Origin: Rheinheimera sp.
Lineage (GTDB): Bacteria > Pseudomonadota > Gammaproteobacteria > Enterobacterales > Alteromonadaceae
Assembly (NCBI RefSeq): GCF_030690345.1
Contig: NZ_JAUYGV010000008.1
Coordinates: 433 to 64,432 of the forward strand
Reading direction: 5' to 3'
Length of the DNA: 64,000 nucleotides
This document shows positions 18,247 through 51,450 of the stretch, piece after piece (within the stretch, counting starts at the first letter, position 1; the number at the start of each line of letters is the position of its first letter). The notes below the pieces were generated by a model. That model had not been told where the DNA came from, searched no databases, and saw nothing but the letters and a program-made list of their open reading frames with translations. The position numbers were made by a program, and so were the translations under genes.

Positions 18247-18365
18247 CTTTTCCGTCAGGAACACCAGACCAAACCTTACCCTTGTCGCTACCAGTGTCTA
18301 TGCTTGGTTTAACTGTCAACTTTGACAACCGCTGATTAACCACAGCACACCAGCATGGAAATATA

Positions 18366-19229
18366 ATGAAAATCGAGCCCTGTGATTACCGCGTGCAACC
18401 CGGTGAGAACCTTGACCTGACACAGCGTCCAACCCATGTTGAGCCGGTTTATGACGACAAAAAGGACTACAAAAAGCTGTTGCGGGAACAGGTCGGTGAC
18501 CTCAGTGAGTTACAGCGGCTGCATTACGCGTCGAATAAATATGCTTTATTAATAATTTTTCAGGGCATGGATACTGCCGGCAAAGACAGCGCTATCCGGC
18601 ATGTGATGTCAGGCGTTAATCCACAGGGCTGCCAGGTATTTAGTTTTAAACAACCCAGTGCAGCAGAGCTGGAGCACGACTTCCTGTGGCGCACGGTCAA
18701 ACGCCTGCCAGAGCGGGGACGGATTGGCATATTTAACCGTTCTTACTACGAGGAAGTACTGGTAGTGCGGGTACACCCGGAGCTACTGAAGGCACAAGGT
18801 TTTGCCAACGATGTCCTCGCAGGGCAAACCATCTGGCAGCAGCGCTTTAAATCAATAACGGATCTGGAAGCGCATTTACACCTTAACGGTACCCGGGTGG
18901 TTAAGTTCTTTTTGCACTTGTCTAAACAGCAGCAGCGCGAGCGGCTTTTAGCCCGTATCGACGAGCCGGAGAAAAACTGGAAGTTTAGTGTCGCTGACAT
19001 AAAAGAACGCGGACACTGGGACGACTATATGCACGCCTATGAAGCTTGCCTTAGCGCCACCAGCACTGCTGCGTCACCTTGGTTTGTTATTCCGGCCGAT
19101 GATAAGAAAAATGCCAGGCTGATTATCTCGCAGATCGTCATCGACAGCTTACAAAACCTGGACATGCACTACCCAAAAGTCAGCGCGGCGCGGCGCCGGC
19201 AATTGCTAAAACTACGCGAGCAACTTTGA
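18366..19229 (+). CDS. polyphosphate kinase 2 (PPK2) family protein
   Basis: 287-aa ORF with a P-loop [13 protein letters not shown] and the FLWR...[23 protein letters not shown] signature of single-domain PPK2 enzymes. Confidence 0.85.
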
Positions 19230-19268
19230 CCACCGCCGCACAAGTTTCAACAAACCGAATCTGCCTTA

Positions 19269-19556
19269 TTACCGCGCCGAAAAATGTTGCTCAAGCCACG
19301 GCAACGCAATCGTCTCTGGCTCCAGCGTTTCGCCGGTGTCAATGCGCAGCATCGGCGCCAGTTCCGTACCCTGAATTTCCAGTAACAGCTCACGCAGCTG
19401 CTCTCCGGCACCGCAAAACGTATCGTAACTGCTATCACCCAAGGCAATGAACGCAAACTGTTTGCCGGTTAACAACGGAAAACGGCTTTGTACATCCAGA
19501 TAAAACGGCAACAGGTTGTCCGGAATATCACCCAGCCCAGTACCGAACTGTAGAGT
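19269..19556 (-). pseudogene. 5'-truncated fragment of a yqcA/mioC-type flavodoxin gene (diverged duplicate of 20651..~20950)
   Basis: The translation ...PFYLDVQSRFPLLTGKQFAFIALGDSSYDTFCGAGEQLRELLLEIQGTELAPMLRIDTGETLEPETIALPWLEQ matches residues ~70-145 of the intact 151-aa flavodoxin at 20651..21106. There is no N-terminal FMN-binding half, and homology decays with indels near 19540-19560. Confidence 0.85.
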
Positions 19557-19682
19557 TCAACCTGATACTTAACACCAACTCCGCGCAAAATACACAAACA
19601 AAACTTATTGACACAATATAAATTACAATATAACAATATTCCTGCATGATTAACATATTTAACTTAACGGAAAAACATAGAG

Positions 19683-19850
19683 ATGAAACCATTTAGTATA
19701 TTATTAGTTACATTACTCTTCTCTGCTTCAGCACTGTCACTACCGATGACATGTAAATGCACTTCGGGAAGTATGGTGGTAGAGGTTTCTGGAGGCACAA
19801 CTAAGATGAGCTGTTCAGGTGGCGGACGCGTTAGCTGCAGGATTGGATAA
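19683..19850 (+). CDS. candidate 55-aa secreted Cys/Gly-rich peptide (not in the ORF track, below its length cutoff)
   Basis: My translation is MKPFSILLVTLLFSASALSLPMTCKCTSGSMVVEVSGGTTKMSCSGGGRVSCRIG*. It has a Sec-type signal peptide (K2, hydrophobic core, ASA-like cleavage site) and a mature part with 4 Cys and many Gly/Ser. It is co-oriented with and 51 nt upstream of the 231-aa ORF, in AT-rich foreign-looking DNA. The SD is weak. Confidence 0.45.
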   Translation: MKPFSILLVTLLFSASALSLPMTCKCTSGSMVVEVSGGTTKMSCSGGGRVSCRIG

Positions 19851-19901
19851 GATAACTCAAGGGCTTTATTTACAAGCTCTTCTTCAAAAACAGAGCGGAT
19901 C

Positions 19902-20597
19902 ATGAAATTAAATATTAATGTATTGGTAGTTATAACTGTGATAATTGCAGCTTTATTTCTTTATAGCTTCGATGGCAATGTTGAGATACTAAACCAGCAC
20001 CCAGAGCAACAGGCAGCTTCACAGAATAATAAAACTACCGAAAGCGATGTCACACCGCCTATACAGCTTGCTACGCTGCACGATAAAGATGTTGCTCCGG
20101 AATCTGCAATACCTGATAGCGTTGAGCAACTACCCAGCTCAGATCCTGAAGCGATAGCGCACCGTAAAGCAATAATGTTTTTCAACAGCTCGGCATTTAA
20201 GTCTGCGGAAACCATAAACGCAGCGTATCTAAATCACGATGGTATTGTGTCACGAAATACATTGGAAATGTCATTTTCCAATAATGACTTTAACCAATTA
20301 GTAACTGTAATTAAAAACGCGGAAAAAAATTCAGCGAGCTTCGAATTAGAAACGACCTTAGAGCAACATTTACTCCGCACATTAAGCAGCAAAGTTTTTG
20401 ACGAAAGCTATTCTTGTGCAGGACGCGTTTGCGCCTTAACTTTCAAAGCAATTCAGCCAGAACAAAACGTTGAATCAGTCAAAGACTTTACAACAAGTTA
20501 TGCATTTACTAACATTAGCCAAGATGATACCGGTGCTTATATTTATAAAGCTATTTTTATTCAGACAACTGATCCCAGTAATTTGCAGATACAATAA
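19902..20597 (+). CDS. hypothetical membrane-anchored protein (N-terminal TM helix), no recognisable family
   Basis: 231-aa ORF whose N-terminus MKLNINVLVVITVIIAALFLY is a signal anchor. The gene is ~30-35% G+C, against ~53% in the flanks (hand counts of 60-nt lines). Confidence 0.65.
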   Translation: MKLNINVLVVITVIIAALFLYSFDGNVEILNQHPEQQAASQNNKTTESDVTPPIQLATLHDKDVAPESAIPDSVEQLPSSDPEAIAHRKAIMFFNSSAFKSAETINAAYLNHDGIVSRNTLEMSFSNNDFNQLVTVIKNAEKNSASFELETTLEQHLLRTLSSKVFDESYSCAGRVCALTFKAIQPEQNVESVKDFTTSYAFTNISQDDTGAYIYKAIFIQTTDPSNLQIQ

Positions 20598-20603
20598 AAC
20601 ACT

Positions 20604-20636
20604 GAAAGAACTTAATTAGCTTCATTAAGTTCTTCA
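20604..20636 (+). terminator. AT-rich hairpin closing the islet operon
   Basis: AAGAACTTAAT-tagcttc-ATTAAGTTCTT forms an 11-bp perfect stem just after the 231-aa ORF stop. There is no strong U tract, so termination efficiency is uncertain. Confidence 0.45.
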
Positions 20637-20650
20637 GCTTCTATCACACC

Positions 20651-21106
20651 TTACTTTTCGTCTTTGAGTGCAAACTTCTGCTCAAGCCACGGCAAAGCAA
20701 TCGTCTCCGGCTCCAGCGTTTCGCCGGCGTCAATGCGCAGCATCGGCGCCAGTTCCGTGCCCTGAATTTCCAGTAACAGCTCACGCAGCTGCTCACCGGC
20801 ACCGCAAAACGTATCGTAACTGCTATCACCCAAGGCAATGACCGCAAACTGTTTGCCGGTTAACAGCGGAAAGCGGCTTTGTACATCAAGGAAAAACGGC
20901 AGCAGGTTGTCCGGAATATCGCCCTGCCCGGTGGTAGAGCTTATCAGCAACCAGATATCAGCATTAAAGCTTAATACCTGATCCAGTTTTGCTTCCTCAT
21001 ACAGCGCCACCTCGTGTCCCAAGCCGGTTAATAACGGCTGCGCCTCTTCAGCAACGTATTGGGCAGCACCATATACGCTACCGACAATCAGGGCTATTTT
21101 TGCCAT
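20651..21106 (-). CDS. yqcA: FMN-binding flavodoxin (YqcA/MioC type)
   Basis: 151-aa ORF: IALIVGSVYGAAQYVAEE...SSTTGQGDIPDNL...IALGDSSYDTFCGAG... It is colinear with E. coli YqcA and adjacent to truC and yqcC, as in E. coli. Confidence 0.85.
   Translation of the reverse strand: MAKIALIVGSVYGAAQYVAEEAQPLLTGLGHEVALYEEAKLDQVLSFNADIWLLISSTTGQGDIPDNLLPFFLDVQSRFPLLTGKQFAVIALGDSSYDTFCGAGEQLRELLLEIQGTELAPMLRIDAGETLEPETIALPWLEQKFALKDEK
20679..20928. repeat. direct repeat copy B (inside intact yqcA) of the ~250-bp segment also present at 19288..19537
   Basis: Hand alignment at an offset of 1391 bp shows about 15 mismatches in ~250 nt (~94% identity). Confidence 0.85.
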
Positions 21107-21900
21107 TTTTCCTCCATAAAAAGCTCAGCAAATTGTTGCTGATAATAAGTTTCATCTACCGGCCAGCCAAATTGGGCAAACAACGGTGCAAGCTCGTTCA
21201 GACCAGCGCTAAACTGCAAAGTTTCAGCGGTTACCGGATGCGGTAACTGTAATTGCTTAGCAACCAACATTAAGCGACGGCAATTAAAATGCTGTTTAAA
21301 CAACGCATTGTGCTTGCCATCACCGTGGCTGGTGTCGCCGACAATCGGATGGCGTAAATGCGCCAAGTGGCGGCGCAACTGATGTTTGCGACCGGTTATT
21401 GGCTGCAGTGCCACTAATGAGTAACGCGCAGCCGGGTATTTACTTACCGCAATGGGCAGTTCTACCTGCTGTAACGGCTGGTAGCGGGTTATAGCCTGCT
21501 GCGGCGCTTTATCGTCACGGCTGAACTTATCGGCAATTTTATCCAACTGTTCTTTAAGCGGGTAATCCAGCTCGCCGCCCTGCGGCAAAAAACCGCGAAC
21601 CACTGCCAGATAGTGCTTACGCCACAGCTTTAGCTCCTGTTGCTCGCCCAGCAGGCGCGCAACCTCAGCAGATAATGCAAACAGCAGTACGCCTGACGTG
21701 GGCCTGTCTAAGCGGTGCACCGGGAAGACATGTTGGCCGATCTGATCGCGCAGCGTTTGCATAACAAACACCGTTTCGTGTTTATCTAAAAAAGAGCGAT
21801 GCACCAACATGCCGCCGGGTTTATCTATCGCCACGATATAGTCGTCCTGATACAGGATAGTTAGCGGCGCTTGTAGCACAAAGGGTTCAGCTGAGCTCAT
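21094..21900 (-). CDS. truC: tRNA pseudouridine(65) synthase TruC
   Basis: 268-aa ORF with the RluA-family catalytic motif HRLDRPTSGVLLFA. Its position between yqcC and yqcA matches E. coli. Confidence 0.88.
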   Translation of the reverse strand: MSSAEPFVLQAPLTILYQDDYIVAIDKPGGMLVHRSFLDKHETVFVMQTLRDQIGQHVFPVHRLDRPTSGVLLFALSAEVARLLGEQQELKLWRKHYLAVVRGFLPQGGELDYPLKEQLDKIADKFSRDDKAPQQAITRYQPLQQVELPIAVSKYPAARYSLVALQPITGRKHQLRRHLAHLRHPIVGDTSHGDGKHNALFKQHFNCRRLMLVAKQLQLPHPVTAETLQFSAGLNELAPLFAQFGWPVDETYYQQQFAELFMEEKWQK

Positions 21901-22232
21901 GTATCACCCGACCATGTATTGCCCGACAAAGTGTTGTCAATACGCGCAATAATACCAAGCAGCGGGGCAAGCCGAGCACCGTAAGCGTTAAAGGCATGTT
22001 CTGCTATTGGTAGTACACTGATCTTTGTTGGCAAGGCCGAGTGTGCATCCAGCAGTGCCTGCAGCCGTGGCAGAAAGATAAATTGCAGCCATTGCTCAAG
22101 CGACATAGTATCGCAGCAAAATGGTGCCGTACTGGCCATCGCTTTAGCAACGGGCGGCGCAGCACTCCAGAGTTGCTGCTGCTTCAGCTCGGTTTCCAGT
22201 TCAATAAGCAGGGATTTAACGGCGTCTGACAT
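21897..22232 (-). CDS. yqcC: YqcC family protein (DUF446)
   Basis: The ORF-track frame is 21897..22313. I prefer the ATG at 22232 (MSDAVKSLLIELETELKQQQLWS..., ~111 aa) because it is preceded by GAGG and gives typical YqcC length. There is a 4-nt overlap with truC. Confidence 0.72.
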   Translation of the reverse strand: MSDAVKSLLIELETELKQQQLWSAAPPVAKAMASTAPFCCDTMSLEQWLQFIFLPRLQALLDAHSALPTKISVLPIAEHAFNAYGARLAPLLGIIARIDNTLSGNTWSGDT

Positions 22233-22341
22233 AACTACCTCATAGTAAGCAGCGCAGTTTAGCATAAGCAAAAGCCACAGCCAGCCCTTGTAAAACAACA
22301 TGCTAATCAGCATTATCAGCCAATAGCTTTAGGAGTAGAGT

Positions 22342-40263: not shown

Positions 40264-40339
40264 TGGTGCCCAGACCCGGAATCGAACCAGGGACACGCGG
40301 ATTTTCAATCCGCTGCTCTACCGACTGAGCTATCTGGGC
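40264..40339 (-). tRNA. tRNA-Phe (GAA)
   Basis: Hand-folded cloverleaf: acceptor GCCCAGA/TCTGGGC, D stem GCTC/GAGC, anticodon stem GCGGA/TCCGC with loop TTGAAAA, T arm CCTGG-TTCGATT-CCGGG, encoded CCA. Near-identical layout to E. coli tRNA-Phe. Confidence 0.97.
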
Positions 40340-40356
40340 AAAACTGTGACGCTAAA

Positions 40357-40432
<76 letters not shown>

Positions 40433-40496
40433 TGCGACAACATGGAAAAAGTTATTTAAGTTTGATACTTTACAACAACTTTAGCACCGAAATTAA

Positions 40497-40572
40497 TGGT
40501 GCCCAGACCCGGAATCGAACCAGGGACACGCGGATTTTCAATCCGCTGCTCTACCGACTGAGCTATCTGGGC
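40497..40572 (-). tRNA. tRNA-Phe (GAA), identical copy
   Basis: Sequence identical to 40264..40339 by direct comparison. Confidence 0.97.
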
Positions 40573-40801: not shown

Positions 40802-43561
40802 ATGGAAAATACGTCGTTTAGTAAACCGATTTTTAAACGCCTGGCTTTATTGTCAGTACTACTGTTGTTAGTCCAGGCTGCGCTGTTACTGCTATGGCAT
40901 AAACCTGAACCGGGCCTGGTTAATAAACAACTGGAACGGCTGGCTGCCGATACCCGGTTGGTTGGCCGCGTAGTGCAACCTTTACTGCGCCGAAACGATT
41001 ACAGTGCTATAGAACAAATATTGGCGCAGGCACGCGATGGCAACACTGACAGAGCAATGTACCTGTATCGTACTACCGAAAGTAACGAGACAGAACTGAT
41101 CGCCAACACCAACAACGTACAGGGCTTTGTACCACAGCCGGCATGGCAGGAAACCGCAGTGCAGCAACCGGGCTATCTGGTAGTACATCACCTTATAAAC
41201 GTTGGCCAGCAAAAAGCCTTACTGGTGTATGTACAGCAATTAACAATTAAACCGCTGTGGCCTTACGCAGCTATTTTTGCCATTAGTTTGGTAATAGGCC
41301 TGTTGCTCAGCGGCTTTTTTGCCTCTGCTATTTCCGGCTTTTTCAGCCGCCGTATTAAGCCTTTATTGCAGGGCACTAAACTGGCACTGGATAAAAATCA
41401 ATTTAACAGCAGCCTCGACAGCCACGCGCGTGACAGCTACGGCACCCTTGGCAGTTATATTAACCAGTTATTTCGCAAAATTGAGGCTGCACAACAAGGC
41501 CTTGCCGAATCAGAGCAAAATATTAAAACGCTGAAGCAGGAAGTAGACACGCGAATTAAAGAGCGCACCGACGCACTGGAAACGGCAAAACTGACAGCGG
41601 AAAAGGCCAATGAAGCCAAATCTACCTTCCTGGCTACCATGAGCCACGAAATACGCACGCCAATGAACGGCATTATCGGCACTATCGATTTACTGCGTAA
41701 AACCCAGCTGTCTACCTCGCAATTTCGTATGACAGATACCGTACGGGAGTCGTCATTCTCGCTGCTGCGCATTTTAGACGACATTCTGGATTTCTCTAAA
41801 ATTGAAGCCGGTAAGCTGGAACTGGAAACCATACCGCTGTCGTTGGTGGAAATTATTGAAGCGGTAGGCCGTATTCTGGTGTCAGTAGCGTATCAGCGCC
41901 AAATCGATTTAAAGCTGTTTATCGACCCGCGCATTCCGGATGGCCTGGTTGGCGACCCTGTGCGGTTACGGCAAATTCTGTATAACCTGGCCGGCAATGC
42001 GATTAAATTTACCCAAACCACACCGGAAACCACCGGTCTGGTGGTAATAAAAGCTGAACTGCTGGAAGAGAATATGGACTTCAGCCAAATTCAGTTCAGT
42101 ATTATCGACAACGGCAAAGGCATGACGCAGCGCCAAATAAGCTATGTGTTCCAACCATTTAACCAGGCCGAAGGTTCCATTACGCGTAAATTTGGCGGCA
42201 CCGGACTGGGCTTGTCTATTTGCCAGCGCTTAACCACGCTGATGTACGGCGACATTAATGTGGTCAGTGAAGTTGATAAAGGTACCGAATTTAAAGTACG
42301 GGTGCCGATGCGCCGCTCAGACGAAATTCATTATCTGGATAAAGAGCTGTTACGCGATATTCATCTGTGCCTGTTTACTACAGATGCGCATAACCGGGCG
42401 CACTTACAAGCGTACTTTGCTTATGCCGGTGCCGAACTTAGCACAGAGCACAGCTTTGAAGCACTGCAGGCCAGAGCCGCTGCGATGAAGCCGCTACCGC
42501 CCAAGCAAGCCGCTGTCTGGGTACTGGATGCTACCTATGAGCAAATTTCTGCGAATGAAATTGACCTGCTGCAACAAACGCCGGGCATGAGTCAGGTACA
42601 GTTTGTTGTCATTACCAATCAGGTGGAGTTATCTGAGCGTAGTAATGACAAAATCTATTATCTGCACAGCTCACCTATTTGCCGCAGCCATTTATACGAT
42701 GCGGTGTTAATTGCGGCTAAACGTAAAGCTAAACCGGTGTACGCCGGTGAGAAAACCCCGACCGCCGCAGCGCCGTCGATTGAACAAGCACGTAAACAAC
42801 GCCGCCTGGTGTTACTGGCCGAAGACAATCTGATGAACCAACGGGTGATTGTCGACCAATTAAACGCCCTTGGCTATGCGGTAGAAGTCGCCGACGATGG
42901 CGCTATCGCGCTGGAAAAATGGCGCCGCTATCACTACCCGTTGCTGTTGACTGATCTGCATATGCCCAATATGAGCGGCTATGACCTGGCAAGCGCAATA
43001 CGTAAAGAAAGCCTGCACCTGAGCGAAGGCGCTGAGTTTACCCGCATTGTCGCTGTAACTGCCAATGCTCTCAAAGGTGAAGAGCAAAAGTGCCTGAGTA
43101 TTGGTATGGACGGTTATATTACTAAACCGATTGAGCTGGCCACGCTGGAACTGATGTTAGCGCGCTGGCTACCGCACCCGCAAAGCGGTAAAAAAGCAGT
43201 GCCGGTAAGTGGCGATAATGGCCAGAATAACTCACCGATTTGTTTTACCACCATCGCCAATTTCCTTGGCAATGACCCGGCCAAACACGAAGAATACCTG
43301 AATTACTTTGTCAAACATGCTGCTGAACTGCTAACCAACCTGAGCAACAGTGCAGAGCAACAAGATCGCAGTACCGCGCGCTCTATAGCACATCAGTTTA
43401 AATCAGTGGCAAAAAGCGTCGGCGCCCTCAGTTTATCCGCTGATGCAGCGAAGCTGGAAAAAGCCGCAGAAGAAAGCGATTGGTCAGTTATCAACGAGTA
43501 TATCCGTCAAATGCAGGAGAAATATCAGGAAGTGGTAAGCTACGTGAAGCAGCGTTACTAA
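40802..43561 (+). CDS. hybrid sensor histidine kinase/response regulator with C-terminal Hpt domain
   Basis: 919-aa ORF with two TM helices flanking a ~130-aa periplasmic region, HisKA ([15 protein letters not shown]), HATPase_c (N-box [12 protein letters not shown]-boxes DNGKGM and GGTGLGLSI), a receiver ([10 protein letters not shown]...[16 protein letters not shown]...TANA...KP) and Hpt-like [12 protein letters not shown]. Confidence 0.9.
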
Positions 43562-43563
43562 GT
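43493..43563. repeat. direct repeat copy 1 (last 22 codons + stop of the hybrid kinase gene), repeated at 46396..46466
   Basis: Hand alignment at an offset of 2903 bp gives 66/71 identical. All 5 differences are synonymous third-codon positions. Confidence 0.9.
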
Positions 43564-43576
43564 CGCCTCATTGATT

Positions 43577-43600
43577 AACCGGAGCCTTAAGGCTCCGGTT
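43577..43600. terminator. perfect 10-bp palindromic hairpin between the convergent kinase and lipoprotein genes
   Basis: AACCGGAGCC-ttaa-GGCTCCGGTT. There is no U tract on either side, so terminator function is uncertain. Confidence 0.45.
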
Positions 43601-43613
43601 ACACTTGTGCTAA

Positions 43614-46244
43614 TCAGAACGTTGTATATTGTGCTTTGCTTGGTTTAAGCACTTTACGTACTACTTTTTTCACATTAAAAGTCTGGGTGCTAAGCGCATT
43701 TTGCGGTGCGGTATCATTCCAGTATTCGTAGTCAATCTCTTCATACATACCAATACGACCAGCAATTATCAAGGCGCCTTCACGGAATGACTCTTCCCGA
43801 ACATACAAACGCCGTCCCAACAGACCATCTTCCATTTTTAACACTGTCCATTCACGCTGTTGCTGTAAAGGCTCGTAGAATAATGTCATACCGTTATCGC
43901 CATTGAGCTGCCAGGTTAATGGTGGCGTGTTCACTTTCGGGTCAAATGCCGGTGGAAAATCTGTTAACGGAAATGGGGAAATTACCCTGTTACCGCTATT
44001 GTCAGCGTTCAGTTGCCAACCAAAAAACTGTGAAAAGACGTTTTCTGTGTCACTGCAATCAGGATCCGCCGGACAAAATAATAACCGGCCGTTATCCCAA
44101 CTTTCTTTAGTCCAGGAGTTAATCATCGTTTGCCAATATTGTTCTTCAGCATTGGCCAGCAAGCTTGCATCAACACCAGCATCGGTTTTAAAGGCATACT
44201 CTGCCTCAGCCGCAATAATGTTGTCGTCTGTATCATAGACCGTAGTAAACACCTGCAAGTCTGTACCGGACTGGTCAATAATTTCCAGTTTAACAGCAGT
44301 GCCATCTGATATTGTAAGGAATAGCTGGCCATCAGTTACCTGCCAATTGAAGGTTCTGTCAGTGGCAGTTCCTAAACCGGTACCATCGGCATTAAACAGC
44401 AGTGGGTCCAGGTAGAAATTAGTTAAATCTCCGCCTTGAAACGGCAGGTTTTGCGTATAGTAGGTATTTATCGCCCAAGTTCCGGCCATTTGTTCTGCAT
44501 CAAAAGCTAACTCTGAGTTACTCTGCTTACGCATTAAAACATTGCTGCTAAATTCAATCGTATCTGATGCTTCAACTAAGCCCTGACTCGTTTGCACAGG
44601 TACCACTTCACGCCGTTGTATACCTGCCTGACGATATGTATCAATTAGTTGGCCTTGTGTAACTCTGGATAACTCAACCGAATCGATATAATACATAACT
44701 GCAACCTGAGAAATATTATCCGTAGTTAACCAATCTACCTGTTGTTGAGTCAGGCCTGCAGCTCCAACTGCCACACCGACAAAACTGGTGAAACTTGAAG
44801 CTGCATTAATATAATCAATGCTGATTTTGCCATTTATCAGTTCCCATTCAAAAGTAGATTCACCGCTACTGATTGCATGTAAACCTGTGCCGTCCTCATT
44901 AAACTGCCAACGCTCACCACCGCGGGATAAAAAGCCCGGCGCAGCAGCGTAAGTGCGAAAGTACAATGGTGCAATTGCATCGGCGGTTACCGGCGGAGTT
45001 AATGTCGGATCTGCCACGATGGCTGCGATGGTATCTTCAATCAAGCTCGGCTGTTCTGCTTCAATTTGCGTAACCAAAGCATTGTAAGCGCCAACATTCG
45101 CCAGTAGCGCTACTATATCTGTAGTACCGTCCGGCAGAGCAATATCCGGGTTGTCAGTAAGAATCTTTACAACAGCTGCAGCCTCGGCCAATTCATCAGC
45201 ATCAATAGATTTTTCTACGAAGGTTAGATCATTGATATTTGCCGGCACCACTCCGTTATTGGCACTAACTAGTAAAGAGTACAACGCGGTGGATACAGCT
45301 GTTACCGAAACAGTGTTAGAGCCATCTGCTGCCACACTGACTTGAGTATCTGCAGGCTTGCTTTTTACGGAAGCGACAGAAACTACTTCAGCCACGGTAA
45401 AACCGGAATAGACAGCATTGTATTTTAAGCGAGTGTTGGCAACTGATGTCACCTCAACAACTACTACGCTATCAGTAAGGTCATCATCTAATTCCAGCTC
45501 AATTACAAAGGCACCATTTTCGTCTACTACAGCAGTTGCCGGCAGCGCCGCGCCGCTCAAAACAGCCTCAGCACCACTGAAATCAGCACCACTAACCTGC
45601 CCCTCCAGCGTAAACGCTACCAATGCAGGCGCAATATCGACCACTAACTCTAATTCGGCAGTTTCATCATCATCATCTGTCACCGTTAACATAAAGCTAA
45701 GCGAAGTAAGCTCTGTAACCGCTGGTGTAGTGAAACTAACCGTATCAGTGTCGCTTCCGGTCAAGGCTACAGTTGGCCCTGCTGTTTGCAGCCAACTAAC
45801 AGCAGTAATCTCGCCGTCATCAGTAAGCGGGGCTGTTAATGAGATGTCTGCTTTTTCGGCTATCGCATCAGGTTCACCACTTAACTGCGGCAGGAGGTTA
45901 TTTAAAAGAGTAACAGTGACATCATCCGTTGCCGTCTGCCCTTTGGCGTCGGTTACCGATAGCCTTAACACAGCGGCACTGTCAACATCTACCGATGGGG
46001 CAGTTATCGTCGGCGACAACGTATCCAGGGCTGAAAAGATCACGTCGGGCCCTGACATCTGAGACCAGCTAACCGTCAATTCGCCCTCACCGCTGGCAGA
46101 ACTGCCGCTGATTTGCACTGAGCGTCGCTCTTTCAGACTAACGTCTGCGCCGGCATTTGCCACGGCATCATCGTCAGATGAACAGCCTCCTAACAAAACA
46201 CCTGCGACAAGCACTGCTGCCACTTTTTTACGCCATACAGCCAT
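43614..46244 (-). CDS. large surface/periplasmic lipoprotein with two N-terminal PKD/Ig-like repeats, function unknown
   Basis: 876-aa ORF with a lipobox LLGGCSSDDD and two ~95-aa repeats (VSWSQMSGPDV...LSVTDAKGQTATDDVTVTL / VSWLQTAGPTV...LTVTDDDDETAELELVV). Recurring later modules have the form F/W-x-F-N-x-DGTG...F-x-W-x-(V/L)-x-x-G. Confidence 0.8.
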   Translation of the reverse strand: MAVWRKKVAAVLVAGVLLGGCSSDDDAVANAGADVSLKERRSVQISGSSASGEGELTVSWSQMSGPDVIFSALDTLSPTITAPSVDVDSAAVLRLSVTDAKGQTATDDVTVTLLNNLLPQLSGEPDAIAEKADISLTAPLTDDGEITAVSWLQTAGPTVALTGSDTDTVSFTTPAVTELTSLSFMLTVTDDDDETAELELVVDIAPALVAFTLEGQVSGADFSGAEAVLSGAALPATAVVDENGAFVIELELDDDLTDSVVVVEVTSVANTRLKYNAVYSGFTVAEVVSVASVKSKPADTQVSVAADGSNTVSVTAVSTALYSLLVSANNGVVPANINDLTFVEKSIDADELAEAAAVVKILTDNPDIALPDGTTDIVALLANVGAYNALVTQIEAEQPSLIEDTIAAIVADPTLTPPVTADAIAPLYFRTYAAAPGFLSRGGERWQFNEDGTGLHAISSGESTFEWELINGKISIDYINAASSFTSFVGVAVGAAGLTQQQVDWLTTDNISQVAVMYYIDSVELSRVTQGQLIDTYRQAGIQRREVVPVQTSQGLVEASDTIEFSSNVLMRKQSNSELAFDAEQMAGTWAINTYYTQNLPFQGGDLTNFYLDPLLFNADGTGLGTATDRTFNWQVTDGQLFLTISDGTAVKLEIIDQSGTDLQVFTTVYDTDDNIIAAEAEYAFKTDAGVDASLLANAEEQYWQTMINSWTKESWDNGRLLFCPADPDCSDTENVFSQFFGWQLNADNSGNRVISPFPLTDFPPAFDPKVNTPPLTWQLNGDNGMTLFYEPLQQQREWTVLKMEDGLLGRRLYVREESFREGALIIAGRIGMYEEIDYEYWNDTAPQNALSTQTFNVKKVVRKVLKPSKAQYTTF

Positions 46245-46395
46245 AATAACTATCCTTATATTCGTCTAATCCACATGGATAAAACGCTTACATTCAGCAA
46301 AAATTCATAATCAACTATACCTGCAACTTGATAAACAGCCGAGGACATTCATTTATAGCGGATAATTTGCAGCAAAAGATGAGTAAAAAAGAAAT

Positions 46396-46464
46396 AACGA
46401 ATATATCCGTCAAATGCAGGAAAAATACCAGGAAGTGGTGAGTTACGTGAAGCAGCGTTACTAA
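46396..46464 (+). pseudogene. orphan 3' fragment (22 codons + stop) of a hybrid-kinase allele
   Basis: Translates to [22 protein letters not shown], identical to the kinase C-terminus, with 5 synonymous nucleotide differences. There is no upstream coding continuity. It is followed by a strong terminator. Confidence 0.85.
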
Positions 46465-46481
46465 GTTGTATTGCGCAGTTT

Positions 46482-46508
46482 AAAACGCCGGCGCAAAGCC
46501 GGCGTTTT
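46482..46508. terminator. bidirectional intrinsic terminator (kinase-fragment side / endonuclease gene side)
   Basis: AAAA-CGCCGGC-gcaaa-GCCGGCG-TTTT. Confidence 0.82.
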
Positions 46509-46513
46509 ACATT

Positions 46514-48121
46514 TTAATTGCCCCAAATGGCGCTGACAAATTGCGGGTGATCAATAAAAGGGTTACGGTTACCCTGATATTGATAAGCTGCGTCGTTACG
46601 ATCGCGCTCTTTCTGGCTGACCGGATCCTGCTGATGCCACTGCTTTAACAGCTGCAACAGCCAGCTTTCAAATACCTGAGTGGTGCTGCCATTTAGCGCT
46701 GCGTTGGCTTCACTGCTGTTGTTCTGCCAGTTAGCCAACTGGTGCTGATAACGCGTTGCCATATAAAAATATGCCCGCGCCACATCGCCTTTAAACTCAT
46801 CAATCGGCTCAAACACCACACCACTGTAGCCGGTGCCCGCAGCGGCATTGCCTAGTTTGCTACCATTGGTTGAGGTAAAACTTGCACTGCCTACTTCACC
46901 AAACGGATAACTGCCGCGTTTAGCATTAACGTAACCGTCGGTGGCGAATATATGGTGGATATCCGAGTTCATCGGCTCTATTGCACCACCAAACCAACTG
47001 CGCGGAAAGCTGTGCTCACGGTTATAGCAATCGGCCTCGCTGTTATAGCTGCCACACTGATCACTGCCGGCGGCATAGACATAGCTATCGCTTGCCGATG
47101 GTTTTTCGGAGTAAATATCTAAAATGGAACCGTCGTTCTCATAGTAGTTATCCAGCTCGTAAACATTATAAAAGCCCCAAATTGCGCTGTAGCCCTGCGC
47201 CGTATGGGTTTTAATAATGTTATGCAGTGCGGTTTTCAGGTTGTAGCCGGTTAAGCCGGCAGCATCTGCATAATAACTGCCTAAATCGCCGCCACCGCCC
47301 GTGCTGCCCAACGTAAAGCTATGGCTTTGCTGGCTGGCAAAAGCGCCGCCACTAAACACCGGTTGACCGCCTAAGGTCAGGCTATAGCTGCCATTACCAT
47401 AGCTGCAACAAATACCATCACCGTAGCTGTCGAAAATGGTAAAGGTGTAGTCCCCATCCGCCAGGCACCACTGTTCAGTGTAACTGCTGCTGGCGGCATA
47501 GCCATCGCCGCTGTACACAGTACCGCTGACATTTGCTACCAACTGCCAGCTGGTTTCAGCACCATAGTTGTCGGTGTTAAGTTCAAAGTCTGCGCTGGTA
47601 TTAGCACAGCCGGTCGGCGGTGGTGCCTGAGTTGTGGCCGGTTCAAACTGATCAACATACACCAGCTCTGCACCATCAAAACCGCTGACATCATAAAAGC
47701 GCAGACCAATTTCGATATTACCGCTGCTGGCAGCGGTATAGCTGTAACTCAGCGTTTGCCACTGTCCGGTTAGTTGCTCATTGGAGTAGCCCTGATAACC
47801 GTTAACATATAGCCGGGCTCTGACATTGCCCTCCGTATGATATACCGCGGTACTGAAGTTATAGGTTTGGCCGGCCGTAACGCTGACCAGTTGGCGAAAA
47901 TCGGTATTGGCCTGATCGGTAGTATTAACGCTAATGGCCGCGGCGCTGCTGCCGCTCAGTTTAGTATTGCCTGATTGGCTCAACGTAATACCGCTGTCAA
48001 TCAGGCTCCAGCTATCCGGCTGATTGCCTGTCCACTGCTCAAAACCGCCGTTAAGTACAGTAGCCTGTGCCGCTATACTGAGGGTAGCAAGCAGACCCGA
48101 CAAGATCGTAATTTTTCTCAT
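46514..48121 (-). CDS. secreted endonuclease I family nuclease fused to N-terminal CBM-like and Cys-rich domains
   Basis: 535-aa ORF with a signal peptide and an N-terminal jelly-roll-like region (VLNGGFEQW...). A middle module carries DSYGDGICCSYGNGSY. The C-terminal Endonuclease_1 motifs are YNREHSFPRSWFGG, DIHHIFATDGYVNAKRGSYPFG, KGDVARAYFYMATRY and GNRNPFIDHP. Confidence 0.85.
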   Translation of the reverse strand: MRKITILSGLLATLSIAAQATVLNGGFEQWTGNQPDSWSLIDSGITLSQSGNTKLSGSSAAAISVNTTDQANTDFRQLVSVTAGQTYNFSTAVYHTEGNVRARLYVNGYQGYSNEQLTGQWQTLSYSYTAASSGNIEIGLRFYDVSGFDGAELVYVDQFEPATTQAPPPTGCANTSADFELNTDNYGAETSWQLVANVSGTVYSGDGYAASSSYTEQWCLADGDYTFTIFDSYGDGICCSYGNGSYSLTLGGQPVFSGGAFASQQSHSFTLGSTGGGGDLGSYYADAAGLTGYNLKTALHNIIKTHTAQGYSAIWGFYNVYELDNYYENDGSILDIYSEKPSASDSYVYAAGSDQCGSYNSEADCYNREHSFPRSWFGGAIEPMNSDIHHIFATDGYVNAKRGSYPFGEVGSASFTSTNGSKLGNAAAGTGYSGVVFEPIDEFKGDVARAYFYMATRYQHQLANWQNNSSEANAALNGSTTQVFESWLLQLLKQWHQQDPVSQKERDRNDAAYQYQGNRNPFIDHPQFVSAIWGN

Positions 48122-50152: not shown

Positions 50153-51091
50153 ATGAATATTAATAAGATGGATTTGAATCTGCTGGTGTACCTGGACGTA
50201 CTGCTGCGCGAGAAAAACGTTACCCGCGCGGCCAACCAGCTGAACATTACCCAGCCGGCGATGAGTAATGGTTTAAAACGGCTGCGCGATTTACTCAACG
50301 ATCCCATCTTAGTACGCACCTCAGATGGCATGGTACCGACCGAGCGCGCGCGTGAGTTGGCGCCAATAGTGCGCGGCGTATTATTAACATTGGAAGAAAC
50401 CCTGCAGCCAAATAAAGACTTTGAGCCGCTGCACAGCCAACGCGTATTTCGCATTATGGCCAGTGATTATGCCGCTTCAACCTTAATACCGGCACTGCTG
50501 AAAAAGATGCGCGCGCAAGCGCCGCATACCAGCCTGGATATTATGACGCCTTCCGATGTGACCTTTCACGATGTTGAAAACGGCAAAGTAGATATGGCGA
50601 TTAACCGCTTTGATCAGTTGCCGCAGTCGTTTCATCAAAAAACCGTATGGCGCGACAGCTTCTCCTGTTTAATCAATGCGCAAAACCCTGTACTGAAAAA
50701 CTTTAACTTAGACAGTTATTTAAAAGCACAGCATATTTGGGTGAGTAAAACCGGCTTTGGCGTAGGCGTAGGCATGGACCCGAAAGACGTGCAAAAGCTC
50801 GGCTGGGTAGACGAAGCCCTGGCTAAGTTGGGCAAGCAGCGCAGCATCTCGGTATTTACCCGTAACTACCATGTGGCGATGCACTTAGCCGTAGGCATAG
50901 ATTTAATCGCCACCCTGCCCAGCCGCGCTGCTAAGTTGTACGAGAACGACGCCACGATGGCCATTATGGACCCGCCGTTTGCCATACCCTCGATTGAGCT
51001 GAAGATGATTTGGAGCCCGTTACTGCACCAGGATGCCAGCCATATCTGGTTCCGCCGGCTGATTGTAGAAACTGCAGATGAATTGAACTGA
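50153..51091 (+). CDS. LysR-family transcriptional regulator
   Basis: 312-aa ORF with an N-terminal wHTH (MDLNLLVYLDVLLREKNVTRAANQLNITQPAMSNGLKRLR). Divergent from aceA. Confidence 0.9.
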   Translation: MNINKMDLNLLVYLDVLLREKNVTRAANQLNITQPAMSNGLKRLRDLLNDPILVRTSDGMVPTERARELAPIVRGVLLTLEETLQPNKDFEPLHSQRVFRIMASDYAASTLIPALLKKMRAQAPHTSLDIMTPSDVTFHDVENGKVDMAINRFDQLPQSFHQKTVWRDSFSCLINAQNPVLKNFNLDSYLKAQHIWVSKTGFGVGVGMDPKDVQKLGWVDEALAKLGKQRSISVFTRNYHVAMHLAVGIDLIATLPSRAAKLYENDATMAIMDPPFAIPSIELKMIWSPLLHQDASHIWFRRLIVETADELN

Positions 51092-51414
51092 CCCCTCCAG
51101 CGAAGGCTGGAATCCCGATTTGGTCGACACAGAGTGTCTGAGTGAGTGCGCAAGCGCGAGCGACAAATTCGTCTGGAACGAATTTGAACAGCTTTAGCTG
51201 GCCCGGAGGGTGCAAGGCAGGAAGCCTGAAATAGTTGCTGTGGCGAGCCAAAGCGGGAGTTGCAGCCGAAGCCTTGCTGCTGGCTTAGTAAAACACCCTG
51301 CCTCACTCGCCGGGGCAACTCGCCCTAATGCCTACGGCAGGGCTCAGACACTCCCCGACTCCTTCAACAGGGTCTTTTTCACGCAGCCGACCTTGGATGT
51401 TTCAACCTTAAAGC
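51092..51414. other. ~320-bp GC-rich structured non-coding element (candidate mosaic intergenic repeat or sRNA)
   Basis: There is no credible ORF (only short overlapping frames without SD). An 11-bp perfect inverted repeat GAGTGTCTGAG (51132..51142) / CTCAGACACTC (51343..51353) is present. A 9-bp hairpin CAAATTCGT-ctgga-ACGAATTTG lies at 51164..51186, with several further GC-rich helices. Confidence 0.4.
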
Positions 51415-51450
51415 CATAAAAAAGGCGCTGTCAGCAAGTCAGCGCCTTTT
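51415..51450. terminator. bidirectional intrinsic terminator downstream of aceB
   Basis: AAAAAA-GGCGCTG-(9-nt loop)-CAGCGCC-TTTT. Confidence 0.8.

Follow-up and report, generated by a model that had tools for sequence, protein, structure and literature searches.

Prophage e14 and phage 21 integrate into the icd gene of Escherichia coli, bringing along a replacement 3' end of the gene and leaving the displaced end behind as the pseudogene icdC. At rhs loci, arrays formed by C-terminal displacement are said to have been described by Jackson and colleagues in 2009. A displacement of 3' ends, with homology-facilitated illegitimate recombination (HFIR) as the proposed mechanism, was described for the effector-immunity arrays of type VI secretion systems (T6SS) (Kirchberger et al. 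2017, PMC5361080; see also PMC2884548). Experiments with Acinetobacter, Streptococcus pneumoniae, and Pseudomonas stutzeri have demonstrated HFIR (de Vries & Wackernagel 2002; Prudhomme et al. 2002; Meier & Wackernagel 2003; cited after PMC5361080 and PMC2884548), and in PMC2884548 it is put forward as an origin of variable segments of natural genomes. The present analysis concerns an islet at the 3' end of yqcA, a flavodoxin gene, in a stretch of 64,000 nucleotides from Rheinheimera sp. (assembly GCF_030690345.1, contig NZ_JAUYGV010000008.1, positions 433 to 64,432), denoted the window, whose own numbering is used throughout. The islet is bracketed by two diverged copies of the 3' half of yqcA. 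It is read here, with somewhat better than even confidence, as a 3'-end displacement scar, produced by recombination that was homologous at one end and illegitimate at the other, and then spread by homologous recombination. The locus is composed of the following features:

20651 to 21106, minus strand: intact yqcA flavodoxin gene of 151 aa, with codons 1–146 of host type and the last six codons plus stop supplied by the islet
20672 to 20932, minus strand: repeat copy I, codons 59–145/146 of the intact yqcA, identical to copy O at 243 of 261 positions
20651 to 20671, minus strand: islet-borne replacement tail of yqcA (ALKDEK plus stop), with junction J1 directly after codon F146
19542 to 20671, no strand: the islet, 1.13 kb with 37.9% G+C, missing from empty-site relatives
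19269 to 19541, minus strand: orphan 5'-truncated yqcA 3' fragment, composed of copy O (19281–19541) and its own native-type tail, SAR plus stop (19269–19280)
18247 to 19268, plus strand: second variable cassette, ppk2 (18366–19229) with spacers, between cysZ and the orphan

The direct repeat (19281–19541 and 20672–20932) spans 261 nt at an offset of 1391 nt, and its copies align without gaps at 93.1% identity (243/261); the 64-kb window holds no longer repeat. The 18 nucleotide differences, 11 of them at third codon positions, result in five amino-acid differences in 87 codons (Q61L, F72Y, V89F, A127T, and K144H). An initial annotation had described a diverged direct repeat of about 250 bp and about 94% identity, with mostly synonymous differences and dissimilar C-terminal tails (..EQKFALKDEK* in the gene, ..EQHFSAR* in the orphan). 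The computed alignment agrees on each of these points, 11 of the 15 differences outside a tract shared by both copies (see below) being synonymous. The earlier count of about three amino-acid changes was too low, and the orphan does not reach to about 19556 as had been assumed: beyond 19541 the alignment score is no better than that of shuffled sequence, and a local alignment of 19542–19700 with the 5' half of yqcA likewise remained at shuffle level. A third, older yqcA remnant between cysZ and ppk2 was considered and rejected, the match comprising just 11 nt, mostly from the cysZ stop region. The orphan begins at codon 59 of yqcA and keeps its own tail and stop. The intact gene passes the NCBIfam model NF005989 for YqcA-type flavodoxins (174.5 bits, cut-off 160 bits), also matches Pfam PF00258, and is collinear with the truC/yqcA region of 80 related loci, up to codon 146 of yqcA. 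An independent Logan assembly, built from a public sequencing run (L083), covers 19421–20789, both junctions included, at 100% identity; the islet structure is therefore no assembly artefact.

The 80 loci were obtained by a YqcA scan of species-representative genomes, the closest being from Rheinheimera. Among them, Rheinheimera sp. NSM (L001) is the nearest relative, with flanks of 93.6% identity; it harbors neither the islet nor ppk2, and its yqcA, like that of most relatives, is directly convergent on cysZ. In none of the 80 genome loci was ppk2 found at the yqcA position. Four further contigs (L089–L092), retrieved by look-up of close ppk2 homologues, show the islet-free order cysZ-ppk2-yqcA-truC with a single yqcA, and thus provide the empty site, ppk2 followed by yqcA, that the initial annotation had predicted. 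A single segment of L089 (6916–7177) aligns to copy O, contiguous with ppk2, as well as to copy I, contiguous with truC. The islet limits are set by this contig, whose alignment runs up to window position 19542 on the ppk2 side and resumes at 20672 on the truC side; L001 also aligns from 20672. The empty-site genomes are collinear with the window over the orphan tail (..HFSAR*), a 39-nt spacer, and ppk2. A check of relatives for cargo polymorphism, likewise envisaged in the initial annotation, revealed cargo in some of them and none in others.

Rheinheimera pacifica DSM 17616 (L002) carries the same islet at the same place, with two cargo proteins (cargo55 and cargo231, described below) that are 75% and 85% identical to those of the window, and contig L082 is similar to L002. 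The tail ALK(D/S)EK is confined to these islet-bearing genomes (L002/L082 and the window), the others differing after ..LPWLxQxF. Since L002 and the window are collinear without gaps across the junction between cargo and orphan, this junction arose once. The orphan of L002 is decayed (about 61–67% identity to any yqcA, with a 108-nt internal deletion) and directly abuts cysZ, ppk2 being absent. As the same islet is thus accompanied by a decayed orphan in L002, the 93% similarity of the repeat copies in the window is not simply the donor-recipient divergence frozen at insertion. A more distant islet, with cargo proteins 75% and 54% identical, lies between an intact yqcA and an orphan in L081. 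The islet holds the same two genes in three diverged versions (window and L083, L002/L082, L081), and the insertion is old and polymorphic, neither recent nor private to the Rheinheimera sp. genome.

A second locus in the window, for which the same topology and a similar divergence had been noted earlier at 43493–46466, was confirmed by a 71-nt repeat and by the empty site and cargo order of its relatives. It is organized as follows:

43493 to 43563, plus strand: repeat copy I2, the 3' end, stop included, of an intact hybrid sensor kinase gene (40802–43561)
43564 to 46395, no strand: locus 2 cargo, a terminator hairpin (43576–43601) and a gene for an 876-aa lipoprotein (43614–46244, minus strand) with its upstream region
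46396 to 46466, plus strand: locus 2 orphan O2, duplicating the 3' end of the kinase gene; next come the native terminator (46481–46509) and the endonuclease-I gene

The copies of this repeat (43493–43563 and 46396–46466) are identical at 66 of 71 positions, and all five differences are synonymous changes at third positions. The site is empty in L084/L085, where the kinase gene (98% identical protein) directly abuts the endonuclease-I gene; segment 9691–9762 of L084 aligns to both copies. L088 shows the donor-type order, in which the kinase is followed by a gene for an 875-aa lipoprotein (80% amino-acid identity to the window cargo) without an orphan, with a homologous terminator and with a response-regulator gene in place of the endonuclease gene. 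Locus 2 of the window is the gene orders of L084 and L088 in series, the join lying 71 nt ahead of the kinase stop. Collinearity of the kinase gene with L084 extends to its stop and past it. An attempt to locate a homologous crossover within it failed because the differences from L084 are spread throughout, with no clean switch point.

At both loci, a conserved gene has alternative downstream neighborhoods. The product retains the two one after the other, with part of the gene's 3' end repeated between them; of its two boundaries, one falls within homologous sequence and one is a novel joint (19541/19542 and 46395/46396). Parental orders are available for both sides at locus 2 (L084 and L088) and for recipient types alone at locus 1 (L001 and L089). 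According to the reading favored here, a Rheinheimera lineage would have acquired a low-GC two-gene module and carried it downstream of yqcA. DNA of this islet order would then have recombined with a genome of ordinary order, with one end joining by homology inside yqcA/truC and the other illegitimately at codon 59 of the resident yqcA, i.e. by HFIR. This would yield a functional yqcA ending in the islet's six codons, followed by the cargo and by the resident 3' half as a dead orphan. Later spread among Rheinheimera may have proceeded by RecA-type homologous recombination, with the gene and the orphan (or DNA beyond the orphan) as presumed arms and in a presumed direction of transfer. Empty sites could arise or persist through replacement by an empty allele or through deletion between the repeats.

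That the unit at locus 1 has since been exchanged by homologous recombination is concluded from four observations: its junction recurs in L002, where the downstream context is different, the cargo is younger than its flanks, the orphan is fresh and allele-like, and a conversion tract is common to the two copies. All four would follow from a double crossover whose exchanges lie in the gene and in the orphan, respectively. Concerning the age of the cargo, synonymous divergence (dS) between the window and L002 is 0.46 and 0.34 for the two cargo genes, compared with 0.70 for truC, 0.54 for the 5' part of yqcA, 0.92 for the 261-nt segment of copy I, and 1.39 for cysZ. The cargo appears to be younger than its flanks and the islet to have moved between lineages after their split, and these values point to a spread of the cargo within the genus. 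By the same measure, the 261-nt part of the live yqcA diverges as the core does, and the last 21 nt alone would travel with the islet.

Concerning the orphan, copies I and O differ with a dS of 0.224 and a nonsynonymous divergence (dN) of 0.031 (omega 0.14); core genes of the window and L001 show dS values of 0.14–0.29, and copy I is 92.7% identical to L001. Judged by these rates, the divergence of the two copies resembles that of functional alleles of sister species. Of the 15 differences located outside the shared tract, 11 are synonymous, compared with an expected share of about 37% for a long-dead copy (P = 0.005), and an old neutral paralogue is therefore rejected. The three nonsynonymous changes unique to the orphan (Q61L, V89F, and A127T) are located at residues invariant in all other sequences and indicate a short period of decay.

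Concerning the shared tract, copy I equals L001 at repeat positions 2–66 and 204–257, with copy O as the odd one out (14 sites), and copies I and O are equal at positions 83–200, with L001 as the odd one out (16 sites). In a runs test on the site patterns, P is 0.0019, and 30 of the 33 sites conform to a model with two breakpoints. Because of this mosaic pattern, a tract of about 120–135 nt is taken to have been homogenized between the yqcA gene and the orphan:

20732 to 20849, minus strand: minimal homogenized tract (gene conversion or exchange) in copy I, with its partner at 19341–19458 in copy O and outer bounds of 20729–20865 and 19338–19474

The two copies, as far as these patterns tell, have recombined. 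Outgroups were also used to infer the direction of conversion between them, without success, the derived states being about evenly split between the branches. Copy O shares allele states with the ppk2-type lineages (e.g. Y72), and the outer segments of copy I are L001-like. To the question of which copy is native, posed by the initial annotation, the answer is that neither is wholly so; the site patterns are mosaic.

Several points weigh against this account. None of the 80 genome loci shows the donor-type order of locus 1 (yqcA followed by the islet without an orphan), and at most 2 nt are shared at the illegitimate joint. The divergence to L001 varies across the region (85% to 100% per 100 nt), a mosaic without a unique resolution, and AT-biased codon usage could partly lower the dS of the cargo as an artefact. 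In L081, the orphan boundary lies at codon 105 and the tail of the intact gene is different; this contig represents either a second independent event or later deletions. Finally, icd/icdC shows the same signature from an integrase-borne element, and the signature alone is thus compatible with a recombinase.

An extension of the displacement reading, put forward with low confidence, regards the orphan as more than debris, namely as a portable right-hand homology arm with the intact gene as its left-hand counterpart, and the islet as an integrase-free cassette that host RecA could move by double crossover into any genome with an intact yqcA, irrespective of the DNA downstream. If this applies, each transfer would refresh the orphan from the recipient's functional yqcA, and there would be a class of recombination-mobilized islets marked by a duplicated 3' end, two of which lie in the 64-kb window.

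Among the competing explanations, a Campbell-type insertion survives best, even if it is considered rather unlikely. A circle carrying the 3' half of yqcA (codons 59–146), the new tail, and the cargo would integrate by one RecA-mediated crossover in yqcA; recombination between the two repeats of an islet-bearing cell could be the source of this circle, which could form anew and integrate again in further genomes. This process gives exactly the observed topology and leaves both junctions intact whatever lies downstream, in agreement with the window and L002, and a crossover with a conversion tract leaves an outer/inner/outer site pattern like the one observed. For a crossover in the central tract it also predicts, however, that the distal part of the intact gene is foreign and that of the orphan native, yet to either side of the tract the intact copy resembles L001. 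Moreover, a non-replicating circle has no obvious route between cells, and uptake by transformation would linearize it. A weak argument against it comes from locus 2, where divergence from the empty-site relative is already elevated immediately ahead of the repeat (9 differences in 53 nt), which a single crossover on its own would not predict.

Whether mobility genes are present bears on the next explanation. The islet comprises two open reading frames only, with no match to a recombinase or transposase family; no inverted repeats flank it, and no att-like core was seen. The hallmarks of transposons, insertion sequences, or miniature inverted-repeat transposable elements are also missing (no bracketing inverted repeat, no transposase, a duplication of 261 nt), so that the earlier statement on the absence of integrase, transposase, and terminal inverted repeats holds under family scans and a repeat search. 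The window is collinear with L089 for about 7 kb upstream and about 6 kb downstream, except for the islet and a gap of about 320 nt at yqcC (21905–22227), and this stretch of L089 contains housekeeping and uncharacterized (DUF) genes and no recombinase or transposase. A remnant or satellite of a site-specific integrative element, with its recombinase lost or supplied in trans, an att site in yqcA, and a carried replacement 3' end, is judged improbable, more so than the Campbell-type circle. Its topology and the mainly synonymous divergence of about 93% do match icd/icdC of E. coli K-12 (computed from NC_000913.3: a 165-nt repeat with 92.7% identity and 11 of 12 differences at third positions), and the same junction is found in two lineages. 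Against it stand the lack of a recombinase both in the islet and for several kb around it, the presence of one and the same gene pair in all three diverged islet versions, hence no visible decay of a larger element, and the 261-nt replacement, which does not co-diverge with the cargo (dS 0.92 vs 0.34–0.46). In addition, the orphan boundary in L081 differs, the junctions of loci 1 and 2 share no motif by inspection, and L088 carries the locus 2 cargo without an orphan. As regards the interpretation offered in the initial annotation, the topology of an insertion scar stands, a Campbell-type event is possible and not required, and a site-specific insertion is disfavored by the dS comparison.

A local origin, i.e. 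tandem duplication of the yqcA 3' half in situ, divergence of the spare copy, and later insertion of the cargo, can be dismissed as highly improbable: direct repeats of gene segments can arise by local duplication, and copies I and O are closest to each other overall (243/261), but the purifying selection seen (omega 0.14; 11 of 15 differences synonymous, P = 0.005) is impossible in situ for a dead 5'-truncated copy, the dS between the copies equals sister-species divergence, the orphan shares ppk2-type allele states (e.g. Y72) while the intact copy matches L001, and the differences at locus 2 are all synonymous (5/5).

Variability at the 3' end of yqcA is not limited to genomes with the islet. 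YqcA tails differ in almost every lineage past the conserved ..LPWLxQxF (codon 146). Cassettes located after codon F146 (window 20651–20674) include a gene for a 450-aa protein in L008, a gene for a 430-aa membrane protein in Arsukibacterium, and others in L015 (among L008, L015, and L021–L034), each with a different YqcA tail of 0–6 residues. Since relatives hold different cassettes at the same spot, the end of yqcA, just after codon 146, is a hotspot of insertion or rearrangement with alternative downstream DNA (cysZ, ppk2, and others). The other cassettes at this position left no yqcA orphan; among the 80 genome loci, L002 alone has one. For the ppk2 cassette, dS to L089 is 0.35, compared with 1.03 and 0.87 for the flanking cysZ and truC, which suggests that this cassette was horizontally exchanged. 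A 16-nt direct repeat around ppk2 (18317–18332 and 19221–19236) was considered as a target duplication and discarded, as it is not kept in L089–L091 and is probably due to chance.

The islet has a G+C content of 37.9% (33–47% in 200-nt windows), compared with about 50–55% in the flanks and 49.3% as the mean of the whole window. Its description as AT-rich in the initial annotation is thus correct, whereas the sampled values of 30–35% G+C were below the overall figure. Besides the replacement tail of yqcA, it contains:

19608 to 19637, plus strand: Sigma-70-like promoter match upstream of cargo55, TTGACA / 18-nt spacer / AACAAT, a putative promoter by consensus match alone (10/12)
19683 to 19850, plus strand: cargo55, a 55-aa precursor with a signal peptide and a mature peptide of about 36 aa with four cysteines
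19902 to 20597, plus strand: cargo231, 231 aa, with a membrane anchor at the N-terminus, then a variable linker and a conserved C-terminal domain (..YSCAGxVCALTF..)
20602 to 20637, no strand: hairpin between the convergent cargo231 and yqcA, by fold energy and z-scores

The TTGACA hexamer of the putative promoter is kept at the same place in L002. The hairpin has fold energies of -12.8 kcal/mol on the plus and -16.3 kcal/mol on the minus strand (z-scores -4.2 and -3.1), recurs at the same position in L081/L082, and is probably a bidirectional terminator. Neither cargo55 nor cargo231 belongs to a significant Pfam, NCBIfam, or PADLOC family; cargo231 shows weak matches only, to Pfam PF23659 (20.5 bits, below the 27-bit cut-off) and, marginally, in PADLOC (E = 9e-4). 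A profile search of 1.84e9 representative proteins retrieved 84 relatives of cargo231; nine of these 84 were scanned and gave no significant Pfam family, and named members of the clusters are called hypothetical. The AlphaFold2 model of cargo231 is too poor for use, with a predicted local distance difference test score (pLDDT) of 38. An Rfam search over 19000–21200 gave no match, and scans of Joint Genome Institute (JGI) metagenome contigs and of viral contigs for the cargo gave no confirmed match.

The pair of cargo55 and a cargo231 homologue is kept in L002, L081, Thalassotalea hakodatensis (L093, AP027365, 2776–3717; 49% and 27% identity), and contig L095 (1226–2202; 59% and 37% identity). 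In L093 and L095, the pair forms a conserved operon whose neighbors are unrelated, and no yqcA lies nearby. Precursors of the cargo55 type (53–55 aa) share the motif ..PMxC[KS]C[TS]SGSM..G....MSC..GGR..C.., and their partners of the cargo231 type (about 235 aa, membrane-anchored) share ..YSCAGxVCA.TF.. and form a family without significant Pfam match or annotation. The cargo is a real, selected two-gene module with a composition foreign to Rheinheimera. The analysis hereby flags a conserved module of marine gammaproteobacteria, consisting of a secreted four-cysteine peptide of about 36 aa and a membrane-anchored partner.

Some further features of the neighborhoods complete the description. Next to truC, the window carries a DUF446 (yqcC-like) gene (21897–22313) without counterpart in L089 (8148–8193); L089 does not contain the window segment 21905–22227, and its truC product is longer (303 aa). 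At locus 2, the 876-aa lipoprotein is PKD/lipocalin-like, and the 535-aa endonuclease-I-domain gene (46514–48121, minus strand) is variable, being present in L084/L085 and absent from L087, where the kinase directly adjoins isocitrate lyase. A cluster of tRNA-Phe, tRNA-Thr, and tRNA-Phe genes (40264–40572, minus strand; tRNA-Phe copies 100% identical) is located just upstream of the sensor kinase. A segment of about 326 nt between the genes of a LysR-type regulator and malate synthase (51090–51415) is absent in L084. Intergenic DNA of L087/L088 contains short matches to it in one orientation or the other, and it showed no internal repeats; it may be a small dispersed repeat element.

The yqcA islet offers a documented natural example of how small cassettes enter and move between related genomes without the machinery of mobile elements. 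For genome annotation, it calls for caution, as the signature of intact gene, cargo, and orphan 3' fragment is not diagnostic of integrase-mediated insertion and arises here without a recombinase. It also illustrates a hazard of single-gene trees: a dead fragment that swaps sequence with the live gene can mislead phylogenies based on that gene.

Compared with the systems introduced above, the locus resembles the products of HFIR in that the insert borders on uninterrupted homology at one of its ends and, through a novel joint, on unrelated DNA at the other, that the two copies are alleles from different genomes, and that no mobility gene is needed. It differs in the joint, which usually shows microhomology of 3–10 nt and here shares at most 2 nt at locus 1, in the retention of a target duplication of 261 nt (or 71 nt), the usual HFIR product being a deletion, and in the later spread of the yqcA islet product among lineages; moreover, the case is known from comparative sequence alone. 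With the arrays of rhs, contact-dependent inhibition (CDI), and T6SS loci, it shares the insertion of a new 3' end plus cargo with the old 3' end remaining downstream as an orphan that retains the conserved part, the absence of an integrase with HFIR as the proposed source, and, for the arrays once formed, movement by homologous recombination. The displaced genes, however, encode a housekeeping flavodoxin and a sensor kinase instead of polymorphic toxins, the new tail amounts to six codons at locus 1 and to none at locus 2, without a variable toxic C-terminal domain, and nothing in the family scans ties the cargo to toxin or immunity functions.

The insertion of e14 into icd has the same succession of intact gene, element, and orphan 3' fragment and the same mainly synonymous divergence of the copies, and its signature is practically the same. 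Yet e14 is a 15-kb element with intE and xisE (NC_000913.3), whereas the islet measures 1.1 kb and has no recombinase, and the replacement 3' end belongs to the element in e14, whereas the islet carries the last 21 nt of the gene only. The yqcA islet is thus a well documented but ordinary instance of an already known footprint of integrase-free recombination between related bacteria.

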